Part shown: positions 35,534 through 51,492 of the stretch, in pieces
How positions within the stretch are numbered: position 1 is the stretch's first letter
Layout: every line of letters begins with the position of its first letter
Origin: Dictyostelium discoideum
Lineage: Eukaryota
NCBI GenBank assembly: GCA_000004695.1
Contig: CM000151.3
Location: 7,232,001-7,296,000 of the forward strand
Direction of reading: 5' to 3'
DNA: 64,000 nucleotides
Translations under genes and position numbers: made by a program
Notes under the pieces: generated by a model
The model's database searches: none
What the model was told of the DNA's origin: nothing
The model's input: the letters and a program-made list of their open reading frames with translations, nothing else

Positions 35534-37288
35534 ATGAAACTTAGTATTGTTACTTTTATTGTAACAGTAGTTGTGTTATCAGTGATCTATATTTATAATA
35601 GTTCAACATTATTAGAATCTAGAGTATTGAAGGATTATGTTGAAAAGTATGATCCAAATTATAAATGGACATTAAATGCAACTTATAACACTAATGTCTC
35701 AACAATTTACATATTAGAATTAAGTATGTTTTTTTTGGATAATAATAATTGTTTAGAAAAATAAAAAAAATAAAAAAAAAAAAAAAAAAAAAAAAAAAAG
35801 TGAAAATATTAATATATATTGATAACATATTATTAAATAATTTTTTTTTATTTTTTAAATAATTATGTTAATTAGCATCACAAAAATGGGATATGGGAAA
35901 TTCAAGTAGTCCACTTTGGAAACATTGGTTAACAGTTTGTATACCAAATAATGCAACAGAAAATTTAGAAACTGGTTTATTACTTATTGATGGAGGTTCA
36001 ACAGTGAATTGGGCAGTACCAAGTGTTAATGGTTGGAGTTCTTTTGGTCAACAATTATGTAAAACATCAAATGAAATTACAGCAACAGTTCAACAAGTAC
36101 CAAATGAACCATTGATTTTTGATAATAATGGTATTAAAAGATCAGAGGATGGTATTGTTGCACTCACATGGCGAAAATATATTGATACAAAGGATTCAAA
36201 TTGGGTTAGTTTACTTCCACAAACTAAATCTGCAATTAAAGCAATGGATGCAGTTCAAGAATTTGGTAAAGAAATTGGTAAATTTTCAATTAAAAATTTT
36301 GTTGTAACTGGTGCTTCAAAGCGTGGGTATGTATTTAAAATTATTTTTTTATTTTTTTTAATTTTATTAATTTTATTAATTTATTATTTTTTAAATTGTT
36401 ATTATTATTATTTTTATTATTATTTATTTCAAAAGATGGACAACATGGGGTACAGCAATGTCATCAGATAAACGTGTTGTTGGTATTGCACCAATGGTTA
36501 TACCAATTTTAAATGTTGCAGAAAATATTGGATCACAAATGCAAGATCTTGGTGAATGGTCATTTGAATTATATGATTATATTCAAAATGGTATCACAAA
36601 TTTCCTTTATACAAAATATTTTGATAATCTTAGAAAGATCATTGACCCAATTAATTATATTAATACATTGGAACCAATTGCAAAATATGTATTAAATGCA
36701 GCAGATGATGAATTCTTTGCAGTTGATAGTCCAAAATTCTTTTATAGTAAATTAAAAGGTGAGACTAGATTAAACACCTATCCAAACACTAATCATAATG
36801 GTATTAAGAAACAAGCAGTTGCCAATGATATTGTAAACTTTTTCAAATTGGTCGCATTTGGTATTGAACGTCCAGAGATTGAATGGTCAATTGAATACTC
36901 TCAAGATAAAAACTTTGGTACAATTAAAATGAAAGTTTTAAAAGGTGTACCAACTAAAATCTCCTTATGGTTTTCAACAACAATTTCAACAACAATGAGA
37001 GATTTCCGTATGTATACATGTGAAGATGCTTCATGTTATCAAAATCTCGATTGGCAATCCATTGATATTGAAATCTCACCAGAAAACAATTATTTCTATA
37101 CAATGGAAAAACCAGCTGCTGGTTGGACTGGTTTCTTTTATCAAGTTGAATTTGAAACTGGTTCATATTACTCAACTGAAGTATCAATTGTACCAGATAT
37201 TTTACCTTTCCCAAAATGTCCAATGTCAGTTTGTGCTTCTGGTATTCCAGCTTATAAAAATAAAACTTTAGAAATAGAAAATAATTAA
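35534..37288 (+). CDS. AprA-like secreted protein (PhoPQ-activated pathogenicity-related family; autocrine proliferation repressor A-like). Exons approx 35534-35723, 35876-36326 and 36436-37288, about 497 aa.
   Basis: It has a signal peptide. The sequence YVEKYDPNYKWTLNATY...WKHWLTVCIPNNATE...FVVTGASKRG|GWTTWGTAMSSDKRVVGIAPMVIPILN... is characteristic of this family. Donors are gtatgt, and phases 1 and 2 were verified. A paralog lies at 49651-51492 on the opposite strand. Confidence 0.83.
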
Positions 37289-37336
37289 TTAATTAAAAAA
37301 AAAATAAATTTATTTATTTTCAAAATTAAAACTTAT

Positions 37337-38143
37337 TTATTCAATTGGTTTTGAATTTTTATTTAAAATTGATGGTGGTTGTAATTCACTATTTATTTTA
37401 TTATTATTATTGTAAATATTATTTTTATTATTATTAATAATATTATGGTTATTAAAATAATCATTATTATAACTAGTATTATTAATATTATTATTTGAAT
37501 TATTGATATTATTATTATTGATATTATTATTATTATTACCAGATATATTATTTAATGATGGAGATCTTATAGCTGTATCGTTTGTATTATTTATAGTATT
37601 CAATTGTTTTAATTTTCTTTCTTTTTTTAAAACTTGAATTAGCCAACTTAAATTGGGATGTAATGCAACACCTTCAACTACAATTAATGCTATTATTTTA
37701 TATGTTTTCTTTCTGTAATATGCTCTATCATGATTACATTGATCACTTATACATGTATTTTCAATAATATTTAATTCACCAGAATACCAAAAAAATGAAA
37801 ATGAAGCAGTTATTAATAAACCACTTAGTAATATTACATACTGAATTAATTAATTATTGATTAAATATTACAAATAAAAAGATTAATAAATTTATTTATT
37901 TAAATAAAATAAAATTAATAATAAAAATAAACATACCAAATACAATAATTTTGAATTTGTTGATTTTTTAAAAAAAACAAAAATACCAAATAAAGATAAT
38001 ATTAAATGGGATGCAAAATAATACCATGAATCAAATAAATGATCATGGTCATTCGTTGTTACTGATAAAGATAATAGTACAATTGAAATTATCTATTTTA
38101 AAAAAATAATAATTAATTTTTAATTATAAATAAATATAATTAT

Positions 38144-38186
<43 letters not shown>

Positions 38187-38306
38187 TACAACTTGAAATA
38201 TTACAAATAATTTTCTTAAATGATGTTCATGTTTTTTAATAAATATATAAATTTTTAAAATTGTATTTATTTGCCTTTTTAATTTTCTTAATATATTTCT
38301 ATACAT
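37337..38306 (-). CDS. Hypothetical four-TM protein with an Asn-rich C-terminal tail. Exons approx 38190-38306, 37937-38092 and 37337-37841, about 260 aa.
   Basis: The product is MYRNILRKLKRQINTILKIYIFIKKHEHHLRKLFVIFQV|IISIVLLSLSVTTNDHDHLFDSWYYFASHLILSLFGIFVFFKKSTNSKLLYL|YVILLSGLLITASFSFFWYSGELNIIENTCISDQCNHDRAYY...(N-rich). Donors are gtaagt and gtatgt, both in phase 0. Confidence 0.55.
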
Positions 38307-38669
38307 TTTTATTTTTTATTCTTTTTTTTTTAAAAATAATTTATTAAATTTGCATGATATTTATAATTTAGAAAAAAAAAAAAAATTAAATAAATAAATA
38401 TATAAATAAATAAATAAAATTATTTTTTTAAAAAAAAAATAAGTTACAAAAAACAAAACAAATAAAATCGAAACAGATAAGGATTAAAAAAAAATAAAAT
38501 AATAAAATAATATTTTAAAAATTTCATTAAAAAATATAAAAATTCTAATAGATAGTTTGCACAGTTTTTGTTTTTTTTTTTATTTATTTTTATTTTTAAT
38601 TTTTATAAAATTAATAGTGTAGTACTCTATTTACCCATCAAAAAAATCTCTAAAAACTTGTGATTTGTT

Positions 38670-38702
38670 TTGTGTGGGTAATGGTGTGTGTGTGTGTGTT
38701 AA
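38670..38702. repeat. (GT)n dinucleotide repeat.
   Basis: GGTGTGTGTGTGTGTGTT. Confidence 0.9.
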
Positions 38703-49019: not shown

Positions 49020-49450
49020 AAAACAATTTTTATTGTTGAAATTTCATTGCTTGTTTGTTGTAATTTCTAAAGTAATAATATTTTTGTTTTTCCCAAATTA
49101 TTATTTTTTAAAAGTTGAATATAAAAAAGAAGAAATTAAGAAATTTTAAAATCACTTTTTTTTGCCTTAAAAAAGCAATAAAGTCAAAAAAAATCTTCTT
49201 GAAGCGTAATAGCTTTAATCAAGTGTAGTATCTGTTCTAGAACGCTTAAAATCGTTCTGCTATCTAAGTGGTAGCTTTCGAATTTAATTTTATTTTTTAT
49301 TCGAGGTTTTTAGATGTTATTATAATAATATAGGCTTGCCTTTATTCATTACATCTTAAGTTGTATTCGCTCTGTATCGCACCATTTCAGAGTCAATAAA
49401 AGAGTACTACCTCTCCCTATTTAATTTTAATGAAAAAAAAATTTTAGTTT
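49020..49450. repeat. Non-coding conserved block, copy 2 of 45050-45480.
   Basis: It is near-identical to copy 1, with only a few substitutions over about 400 bp. Confidence 0.7.
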
Positions 49451-49650
49451 GCATGGAAAAATTAAAAAGTTTTTATATTATTCACAGAAATAATTATTTT
49501 ACTCACCAACCAATAAGAAAAGAAAAATAATAAAAGAGTTTCTATATCCTCTAATTATTATTATTTTAAAAAAAAAAAAAATAAATAAAAAAAAAATAAA
49601 AAAAAAATCAAATATTTTATTTATAGAATATATTGAAAAGATTATTTAAA

Positions 49651-50951
49651 TTAAAAATCTTCTTCAATTTCATCTTCAATGTCTTCATAGTCATCTTCAT
49701 TATCTGAATCATTGTTTTGGTTTTGATTTGATTTCACCCATGATGGTTTACCTGAGCCACATACTTCCATTGTACATTTTGGGAATGGATATACGTCTGG
49801 TACAACTGCACCTTCTGAAGTATAGGAAGCACCATTTGAGAATATAACTTGGAAGAAAAAGCCACTCCAACCTGATGTTGGTTTTAACATTGTGTGTGAA
49901 TAGTTATTGGATGATGATAAATTAATTTCTTGTGATGTCCATTTAATATTTTGGTAACATTCAGCAGCATTACAAGTAAACATACGGAAATCTCTTTTAG
50001 TTGATGAAATAGTAGTTGCTGACCATAATAATACTTTAGTTGCAACACCTTTGGTAACTTTAAGATTGATTGTGCCATAGTTTTTACAATCAGAGTAAGC
50101 AATGTTCCATGTGATTTCTGGACGTTCAATTCCATTTGCAACCAATTTGAAAAAGTTTGCAATATCAGTAGCACAACTTTGTTGTAAAATTCCACCATGG
50201 TTTGTATTTGGATAAATACCTAATTTTGTCTCACCTTTTAATAAATGAAAGAATGATTTAGTTTGATCGAAAAGGAAAAATTCATCAGATGTACCAAGTA
50301 AAATAAATTTAGCAATTGGTTTTAATGTATTTAAATAATTAATTGGATCAATAATCTTTGTAACCTTTTTAAAGTATTTGGTGTAAAGGAAATTTGTAAT
50401 ATTATGATTAACATAATCTTTAAGAGCAAATGACCAATTTCCATATGCTTCAACTTGTGCTTCAATATTTTCAACAAGATTTAAAATTGGAATAACCATT
50501 GGTGCAATACCAATAACACGTTTATCTACCATAGCTGCACCCCATGCTGTCCAACTTTTGAAATAAAAAAATAAATATATAATAAAAAAAAAATTAGAAT
50601 TAAAAGAATAATTTATAATAAATAATAATAATTAAAATTAACATACCCACGTTTAGAAGCACCAGTTACAATAAACTTTTTAATTGTGTAATTACCAGTG
50701 ATTGTTTTACCAAACTCTTGAATTGCATCCATTGCTTTTGTTGCTGATTTGGTTTGTGGAAGTAAACTAAGCCATGTTGGATCTTTAGTATCCATAAATT
50801 TACGCCATGTGTATGCTACAATATCATCCTCTGATCTTTGAACACCATCATTTTCAAAAATTATATATTGATTTGGTACTTGAAGAAGTGTAGCTGTAAT
50901 TTCACCTGATGCATTACATAACATTCCTCCAAATGAATCTAATTTACTATT

Positions 50952-50986
<35 letters not shown>

Positions 50987-51258
50987 ATTTATTTATATTT
51001 TAATTAATATTAATAATAATAATAAAAATGATTATTAATACTTACTTAATTGTTGGTACTGCCCAATTAATATTATTACCATTATTTACAAACAACAAAC
51101 CAGTTTGATGATTTGATGAATAGTTATTTGGTTTACAAATTGTTAACCAATGTTTCCAAATTGGTTTATCTGTATGACCACTCATCCATTGTTGTGATGC
51201 TATTTTTTTTATAATTATTATTGTTAATTTTATTTATTTATTTATTTTTTTTTTTTTT

Positions 51259-51301
<43 letters not shown>

Positions 51302-51492
51302 CTAATTAATAACATACCTAATTCTAAAACATAAACCTTTGCATAATTTATATCATATGTGGCGTTTAAAGTCCATTTATAGCTTGGATCATACTTTTCA
51401 ACATATTTTTTTAATTTTTTAGATTCTGATAAAACAGAACTACAACTAATTAATATTATTACAATCAAAAATAATAAATTATTTATTTTCAT
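49651..51492 (-). CDS. AprA-like secreted protein (PhoPQ-activated pathogenicity-related family), paralog of 35534-37288 in inverted orientation. Four exons, approx 51318-51492, 51046-51199, 50648-50947 and 49651-50554.
   Basis: It has a signal peptide (MKINNLLFLIVIILISCSSVLS) and reads YVEKYDPSYKWTLNATY..VLEL|ASQQWMSGHTDKPIWKHWLTICKPNN..NWAVPTIN|KLDSFGGMLCNASGEITATLLQVPNQ...FIVTGASKRG|GWTAWGAAMVDKRVIGIAPMVIPILN.. with an acidic C-terminus. It has one more intron than the plus-strand paralog. Confidence 0.8.

Follow-up and report, generated by a model that had tools for sequence, protein, structure and literature searches.

A tandemly repeated unit of a decayed gene and a U2 snRNA gene between two PhoPQ_related genes of Dictyostelium discoideum

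A window of 64,000 nucleotides (nt) of Dictyostelium discoideum AX4 was analysed (NCBI GenBank assembly GCA_000004695.1, contig CM000151.3, positions 7,232,001 to 7,296,000 of the forward strand; all positions below are those of the window unless another assembly is named). Between two genes of the PhoPQ_related family, in the interval 35534-51492, it carries a head-to-tail duplication of a unit of ~3656 bp. Each unit holds one copy of a gene of ~950 amino acids (aa), termed XY here, and one gene for the U2 small nuclear RNA (snRNA). The interval is very probably the outcome of ordinary duplication, inversion and decay, in which an XY + U2 cassette was duplicated in tandem at an early time, the XY copies decayed independently in each lineage and U2 was conserved. 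An initial annotation of the interval had described a tandem unit of ~3.7 kb with two genes, X and Y, and a conserved non-coding block. The unit, its two copies and the copy-specific frame lesions were borne out by BLAST self-alignment and frame analysis. The number of genes, the nature of the block and the age of the duplication had to be revised.

One decayed gene in two tandem copies

The self-alignment resolved the repeat into three segments, namely 42077-43584 against 45733-47252 (89.6% identity), 43586-44969 against 47340-48697 (90.8%) and 44973-45619 against 48932-49608 (83%). Unit 1 extends over 42077-45732 on the plus strand and contains XY copy 1 and the U2a gene. It is followed on the same strand by unit 2 (45733-49608) with XY copy 2 and U2b. 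The repeat was visible by BLAST self-alignment but invisible to a general repeat finder applied to 34-53 kb, where families of poly-A/T low complexity dominated. The window has a base composition of ~20% G+C, and its introns are short and AT-rich.

Judged from sequence comparison, genes X and Y of the initial annotation are the two halves of one gene of ~950 aa, given the fact that full-length homologues exist and that intact orthologues occupy the syntenic position. With the repaired X+Y protein as query, 22 Dictyostelium proteins were found, most of them full length (884-1076 aa) and with a query coverage of 91-100%. The AX4 paralogs DDB_G0271438, DDB_G0271166 and DDB_G0268918 are among them. 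The 948-aa protein P0001 has 85% identity to the repaired X+Y and is encoded at the syntenic position of assembly GCA_054859385.1 (FIR). There, the gene order matches the window with a PhoPQ_related gene, a small gene, two TLC genes, the 948-aa gene, its second copy and again a PhoPQ_related gene. In GCA_054859355.1 (FIW), both XY copies are intact and encode 950 aa (P0038) and 998 aa. Within the window itself, the X frame of copy 2 continues into the stretch directly upstream of the Y start (...TIHFDTCFDVDDDKCYKILFSHCLD(stop)EKKLEFINQIIKRFNKKP...), and the Y frame of copy 1 extends upstream via IIKRFNKKPVKGCWLYYFYMLVIHND. Gene Y had been described as intact in both copies. Its open reading frames (ORFs) of 434 aa (43645-44949) and 426 aa (47397-48677) are indeed present, but they are part of XY and not a gene of their own.

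Both copies were delimited by frame analysis and a four-way alignment. XY copy 1 (42148-44949, plus strand) is disrupted and pseudogenised in comparison with the intact orthologues of 948 and 950 aa. One A is missing at 42342 (AAATGTAATTC compared to AAATGTAAATTC), and 86 nt are deleted between 43584 and 43585. XY copy 2 (45816-48677, plus strand) is a pseudogene whose FIW orthologue of 998 aa is intact. Its X part is open for 314 codons (45816-46760). This copy carries five lesions. Three are losses of 2 nt, near 46747, 46980 and 47393. The other two are stops, namely an in-frame TAA near 46840, where an Asp-rich tract is expanded, and an AAA-to-TAA nonsense change at 47312-47314. The initial description of a gene X that is broken differently in each copy, by a 1-nt deletion in copy 1 and by indels and stops after 314 open codons in copy 2, was therefore correct. 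The insertion of ~95 bp that had been assigned to copy 2 is the 86-nt deletion of copy 1, because all other strain copies retain this segment. The decay is also not complementary, as had been proposed, since neither AX4 copy encodes a full-length protein and the lesions are independent, none of them being shared with FIR copy 2. In the four-way alignment, all lesions of both AX4 copies are private, FIR copy 2 is broken by a different set of its own and FIR copy 1 is intact. The number of intact XY copies is two in FIW, one in FIR and zero in AX4. Both AX4 copies can be classified as unprocessed (duplicated) pseudogenes by their frame-disrupting lesions compared to the intact 948-, 950- and 998-aa comparators.

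The ORF at 42148-42366 (73 aa, stop at 42367-42369) was identical to AX4 DDB_G0276889 in an exact look-up. DDB_G0276889 is the stub of a broken gene of ~950 aa. The two lesions of copy 1 sum up to -87 nt, a multiple of three, and the 1.24 kb that separate them contain no stop in their own frame. The frame pattern of this copy is thus 1, 0, 1, and its first and last ORF pieces share a frame. This was treated as a coincidence (~1 in 3) and not as a meaningful rescue of the frame; translation from the ATG ends at 42367-42369. An intron at the frameshift was rejected because the site has no GT...AG and the frame stays open in the three other copies, each of which has one more A there. Programmed frameshifting was rejected as well, given that the other copies read through and that the frame entered after the 1-nt deletion stops after 9 codons.

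The automatic annotation of a further assembly, GCA_054883475.1 (locus 12782-19309), lists four genes of 444, 434, 451 and 426 aa in place of the two pseudogenes. This call is an annotation artefact and will propagate into protein databases. In an annotation, the ORF pieces at 42.3-44.9 and 45.8-48.7 kb should count as two pseudogene copies and not as four genes.

At E <= 1e-3, a search among 1.84 billion proteins gave only 69 representatives of the XY family, and many of these are fragments. The source of ten distant members was looked up, and all were group-4 Dictyostelium, namely the discoideum complex, D. citrinum, D. firmibasis, D. dimigraforme and D. purpureum. XY is a Dictyostelium-only, fast-evolving and all-alpha family with a weak Rho_N/HeH-like N-terminus. 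Rho_N (PF07498) matched the window copy with 14.1 bits and an E value of 0.047, which is below the cut-off of 24.9 bits. It matched four out of 18 full-length family members in Pfam (best E 6.5e-09), and the UniRef name of the AX4 members is 'Rho termination factor-like N-terminal domain-containing protein'. A SAP/HeH-like N-terminus of X had been noted initially; the window copies stayed below the Pfam cut-off. Pfam gave no family for Y and only sub-threshold matches for X. A profile search of the PDB with XY returned only noise at E >= 0.06, including MAD2 and the SAP domain of Ku. The AlphaFold model of XY is all-alpha with a pLDDT of 60.9, and Foldseek gave no significant match of this model in the PDB (best E 0.45). 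Concerning its function, at most a HeH/SAP-like, predicted nucleic-acid-binding N-terminus on an alpha-helical body can be assigned to XY.

The XY paralog loci elsewhere are tandem arrays that include fragments. A literature search on the gene IDs of the family yielded for DDB_G0271438 only a primer listing for quantitative reverse-transcription PCR in a Mef2A study. In GCA_054883475.1, the array around this paralog consists of about four tandem copies or fragments of the XY family with a DDE_3 transposase gene inside (15209-16693). A match to the Rfam mir-7131 precursor was recorded beside the array at 675-763 of the locus (98.9 bits, on both strands).

A U2 snRNA gene in each unit

The block that had been regarded as conserved non-coding DNA is a complete U2 snRNA gene (Rfam RF00004), one per unit. 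U2a (45209-45423, plus strand) scored 76.2 bits (E 3e-13) over positions 1-192 of the 192 model positions, and its start possibly lies ~39 nt further upstream (~45170). U2b (49193-49407, plus strand) matched over the full length with 72.7 bits (E 2.1e-12). Both scores are above the gathering score of 46 bits. Five other assemblies yielded 8 further full-length matches, again one per unit. In the cmscan alignment, the branch-point recognition sequence AUCAAGUGUAGUAUCUGUUCU (GUAGUA) is identical to the consensus, AAUUUUAUUUUUUAUU is found at the position of the U-rich Sm site, and stem-loops I, IIa, IIb, III and IV have paired stems, with one pair of stem III broken in U2b. A low-threshold Rfam scan of 33-52.5 kb detected nothing beyond the two U2 genes.

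The U2 bodies of the seven discoideum-complex copies (AX4, FIR, FIW and FIY) are 96-98.6% identical to each other and 91% identical to D. citrinum. The values for the adjacent XY coding sequence are 90-95% among the discoideum copies and 75% to D. citrinum. The U2 block is 96-97% identical in every pairwise comparison, and whole units are 89-94% identical. The ~45 nt directly upstream of the U2 body have an identity of 98-100% among the discoideum copies. By these comparisons, conservation within the unit is highest in U2, which is apparently under purifying selection relative to its flanks.

The DUSE motif has the consensus [AT]CCCA[AT]AA and is normally located ~60-63 nt upstream of the transcription start (PMC3188802). 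The motif TCCCAAAA at 45107-45114 (plus strand) matches this consensus and is conserved in other strains. It is located 102 nt upstream of the U2a body, so that the DUSE is found at -102 from the canonical U2 5' end compared to the usual ~-63. A start at DUSE+63 would give U2 a 5' extension of 39 nt. This stretch is 98-100% conserved and could pair into a weak hairpin of a U-run and an A-run, with 0 compensatory pairs and with 2 pairs broken in D. citrinum. Upstream of U2b, a DUSE-like motif TCCCAAAT is present at 49091-49098 (plus strand), which has a 1-nt deletion compared to the consensus. In total, AX4 U2b shows three private changes: the one from DUSE to TCCCAAAT, one additional A directly before the body and an A-to-T change within 49352-49360 that breaks one pair of stem III. 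The only U2 copy of D. citrinum also has TCCCAAAT, and the change therefore need not be disabling.

Age of the duplication and alternative explanations

XY was placed in a neighbour-joining tree on 2247 ungapped columns. The copy-1 sequences of AX4, FIR and FIW form one clade with 88% bootstrap support, and the copy-2 sequences of the same three form another with 100%. Orthologues are 94.2% and 93.3% identical and paralogs 89-90%. The synonymous divergence (dS) is 0.12 for the paralogs and, for orthologues of AX4 and FIW, 0.10-0.13. Given the separate clades and the dS values, the duplication predates the split of AX4, FIR and FIW, and the initial view of a recent event was abandoned. A recent duplication with rapid divergence, or one confined to AX4, would agree with copies that are ~90% identical and still co-linear, and the 800 nt at the 5' end, which are 92-95% identical in all comparisons, could reflect gene conversion. 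It is nevertheless very improbable, as orthologues are closer to each other than paralogs, each clade includes three lineages and the duplication is present in lineages that are ~5% away from AX4 in the ungapped gene columns and ~11% across the locus.

The FIR and FIW assemblies (tags ACTFIR and ACTFIW) are labelled 'Dictyostelium discoideum' and are ~87-90% identical to AX4 over 32-55 kb of the window. Their divergence (dS ~0.10-0.13 in XY) is far greater than would be expected for a single species and points to cryptic species within the D. discoideum complex.

FIY ('D. cf. discoideum') has a single broken XY unit and one U2. Of 51 diagnostic sites spread over the whole gene, 42 have the copy-1 state in this unit, which shares seven derived states with copy 1 and one with copy 2. 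FIY has therefore probably lost one unit secondarily, plausibly by recombination between the near-identical U2 blocks. In the D. citrinum locus, a heavily deleted second XY remnant was observed beyond U2 at 17869-18758, where it is annotated as a gene of 172 aa.

An origin of the pattern in the data themselves had been considered from the start, either as a mis-assembled recent duplicate or as a homopolymer error in the AX4 reference that produced the 1-nt deletion of copy 1. AX4 is an older assembly, and the site is in a short A run (AAA versus AA) within extremely AT-rich DNA. However, GCA_054883475.1, which was taken to be assembled de novo, matches the window at 99.26% identity over 21.9 kb. 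It likewise contains the two units and reproduces all AX4 lesions base for base, including the missing A at 42342. Over 42.0-49.7 kb, its differences are confined to two intergenic homopolymers. The two-unit structure was also found in three further assemblies, and FIR and FIW each have a U2 gene in both units, so that the possibility of a single X/Y unit is not borne out. Moreover, the copies differ by ~10% and are hence too divergent for a collapse or expansion artefact. An artefact is therefore the least credible of the explanations and can be regarded as extremely improbable. Gene fission or subfunctionalisation is the more serious proposal, although an unlikely one. It holds that the X and Y halves of AX4, or at least Y, persist as separate functional genes with 'complementary' lesions. 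Both Y ORFs are open, all five lesions of copy 2 are within ~650 bp between the 314 open N-terminal codons and the Y ORF, the AX4-like assembly is annotated with four genes, and pairwise comparisons with the AX4 copies give ratios of non-synonymous to synonymous divergence (dN/dS, omega) of less than 1; omega is 0.33-0.58 throughout the pairwise XY comparisons. On the other hand, neither X alone nor Y alone is a conserved state in any strain or species, the full-length architecture being the rule, and the lesions of FIR copy 2 and FIY hit the Y part too. On the AX4 branch, omega was ~0.85 for the Y halves, with small counts of 4 synonymous and 15 non-synonymous changes and of 5 and 20, compared to 0.36-0.54 for Y between FIW and FIR copies, where FIR copy 2 is itself broken. 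For Y, this hints at relaxation in AX4. The X halves had values of 0.18-0.30 on the same branch, also with small counts. In addition, the only piece of the copies among the AX4 proteins in the exact look-up was the 73-aa stub, and Y would require its own promoter within former coding sequence. The X and Y ORFs of AX4 are most likely non-functional remnants and not two genes.

A further explanation is that XY and U2 form a functionally coupled cassette. The U2 genes would then encode 5'-extended variants whose dosage selected for two units, and XY would be a dispensable, conflict-driven nuclear HeH factor that varies among lineages and of which AX4 is a natural double null. The linkage from D. 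citrinum to D. discoideum, the unusual spacing of the DUSE and the 0-2 intact XY copies are compatible with such a coupling. Nothing positively supports a functional link, however, and the paralog arrays at the two loci scanned are without U2 genes, which shows that U2 does not generally accompany the XY family. The coupling is considered to be improbable.

Some points weigh against an old tandem duplication with independent decay of XY and conservation of U2. GCA_054883475.1 is taken to be independent of the AX4 reference because the contig structures differ. The placement of the FIY unit in the tree is ambiguous, and so is the timing of the first XY duplication, before or after the split of D. 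citrinum and D. discoideum, given that the D. citrinum remnant is about equidistant (70-82%) from all discoideum copies and from the main copy of D. citrinum. Due to the DUSE position at -102 and not at ~-63, the assignment of the U2 promoter and transcription start is uncertain. The omega values on the AX4 branch suffer from their small counts (4-5 synonymous versus 15-20 non-synonymous changes). The pairwise dN/dS to the AX4 copies is 0.36-0.49 and not near 1, which means that pseudogenisation is recent relative to the total divergence or that some constraint persists. Truncated products may be made in AX4, as both Y ORFs and the first 314 X codons of copy 2 are stop-free.

Flanking genes, order of events and comparison with known systems

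The two PhoPQ_related genes, designated AprA_A and AprA_B here, flank the interval in opposite orientation. AprA_A (35534-37288, plus strand) has three exons (~35534-35728, 35870-36330 and 36431-37288) with Pfam E values of 5.5e-51 and 4.2e-62. They were mapped by tblastn of the orthologue P0026 with 89-99% identity. AprA_B (49651-51492, minus strand) has four exons, matches the same family in Pfam and is identical to AX4 EAL69017.1/Q550S3. On the exons of both genes, PF10142 scored 129-210 bits (cut-off 20.3) with E values from 1e-37 to 4e-62. In the self-alignment, the inverted pair matched at 36055-37244 against 50921-49749 (74.5%) and at 35609-36022 against 51432-51053 (68.8%), and the identity of the proteins is 61%. 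AprA_B has an extra intron (GTAAGT...ATAG, ~50938-51044) that is absent from AprA_A, so that the numbers of introns are three and two. The initial description of inverted AprA-like genes that differ by one intron is in agreement with the self-alignment, the PF10142 matches and the exon mapping.

Three genes are found between AprA_A and the tandem units, as initially described; all are on the minus strand. A small gene for a multi-pass membrane protein with several hydrophobic segments and a poly-Asn tail spans ~37340-38306, with approximate boundaries. Its syntenic models in other assemblies have 219-249 aa and no Pfam match. It is followed by two multi-exon TLC-domain genes in tandem. TLC gene 1 (39007-40048) matches PF03798 on its last exon (E 1.5e-07), and the syntenic TRAM_LAG1_CLN8 model has 259 aa. 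Its paralog, TLC gene 2 (40592-41553), matches with an E value of 5.9e-09, and its start codon was read from the sequence at ~41553. The PF03798 scores of the two genes are 36.6 and 32.0 bits (cut-off 24.6), and they share 67% nucleotide identity between 39622-39858 and 41158-41385.

The gene order differs between the species. In D. firmibasis, two PhoPQ_related genes are adjacent and in direct orientation; after them, on the opposite strand, come the small gene and the TLC genes, and neither XY nor U2 was found at this locus. In D. citrinum, the two PhoPQ_related genes are also direct, and XY (a 1160-aa model, ~75% nucleotide identity), one U2 and the second XY remnant are located between them. 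In AX4, FIR and FIY, the block of AprA_A, the small gene, TLC1 and TLC2 is inverted compared to these two species, while the FIW locus reaches only the TLC genes. The inverted orientation of the AprA-like genes thus results from the inversion of an old direct tandem pair and not from an inverted duplication.

Inverted repeats were observed at both ends of this block. A 68-nt inverted repeat (34539-34606/34747-34814), 97% complementary and with arms 140 nt apart, is situated at the left end of the block, directly to the left of AprA_A. The G-rich islands TAGGGGGTACC and TTAGGGGGGCACCCC lie near it in AT-rich intergenic DNA, and a looser palindrome is found at 34955-35139. No Rfam match was obtained there even at E 0.5. 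At the other end, a palindrome of ~78 nt (41772-41849, 85% self-complementary) is located between TLC2 and XY copy 1, ~230 nt before tandem unit 1. Elsewhere in the window, three tandem paralogs for a multi-pass membrane protein of 378, 353 and 341 aa were noted on the minus strand (22558-23694, 24369-25430 and 26388-27413; nucleotide self-match of 66% at 24219-25211 against 26254-27215), as well as a tRNA-Ser(AGA) gene on the minus strand (5204-5285) found by ARAGORN and Rfam (61.5 bits).

The locus goes back to an old tandem pair of PhoPQ_related genes in direct orientation; this orientation persists in D. citrinum and in D. firmibasis, where the two genes are also adjacent. By synteny, the XY + U2 cassette is located between these genes in D. 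citrinum and the discoideum clade, and not in D. firmibasis, and the four-gene block of AprA_A, the small membrane protein gene, TLC1 and TLC2 was inverted in the discoideum clade. The cassette was duplicated head-to-tail before AX4, FIR and FIW separated, perhaps by unequal recombination or replication slippage in the AT-rich DNA. Thereafter, the XY copies decayed independently in each lineage, with the loss of both in AX4. The U2 genes, the DUSE motif and the ~45 nt upstream of the body stayed near-invariant, and selection on U2 may have kept this part intact.

The locus is a compact and dated example of birth-and-death evolution in a Dictyostelium-specific family, and it opens no long-standing question. 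Natural lineages have two, one or no intact XY copies, and AX4 is hence a natural null for the XY gene of this locus. The main value of the analysis is the correction of the annotation and the flagging of two linked U2 genes with an unusual promoter spacing. These conserved genes with their atypical DUSE distance are of interest for work on Dictyostelium U2 variants.

With the AprA-like secreted proteins of Dictyostelium, the two flanking genes share a PF10142 match over the full length, and AprA_B is annotated as 'PhoPQ-activated pathogenicity-related protein'. The two genes of the window are paralogs that are known here by the family match, and identity with aprA is not implied.

Seventeen snRNA genes of D. 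discoideum have reportedly been published. U2 variants with an extra 5' stem-loop are said to exist in Dictyostelium, and cytoplasmic enrichment and developmental regulation are reportedly traits of this variant class. The U2 genes of the window have the full hallmarks of U2 and an upstream DUSE. Their 39 conserved nt could form a weak hairpin, for which no covariation was seen, and the link to such variants is a lead only.

Human RNU2 is a tandem array of U2 genes. The window resembles it in that U2 and an upstream promoter element are part of a repeat unit of a few kb and that the U2 part is near-identical between units. It differs in having only two units, each with a protein-coding gene, and in their divergence of ~10% outside U2, so that there is no array-wide homogenisation. 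Furthermore, its promoter element is the dictyostelid DUSE and not the metazoan proximal and distal sequence elements (PSE/DSE).

The closest likeness is to the birth-and-death of tandem, lineage-specific gene families with polymorphic or unitary pseudogenes. As in such families, the paralogs are arranged head-to-tail, the lesions arose independently in each lineage, and one or two copies are present of which zero to two are intact. Purifying selection is likewise weak (omega 0.3-0.6), and the other XY loci are tandem arrays with fragments. The only unusual trait of the window is that each repeat unit contains a conserved snRNA gene.

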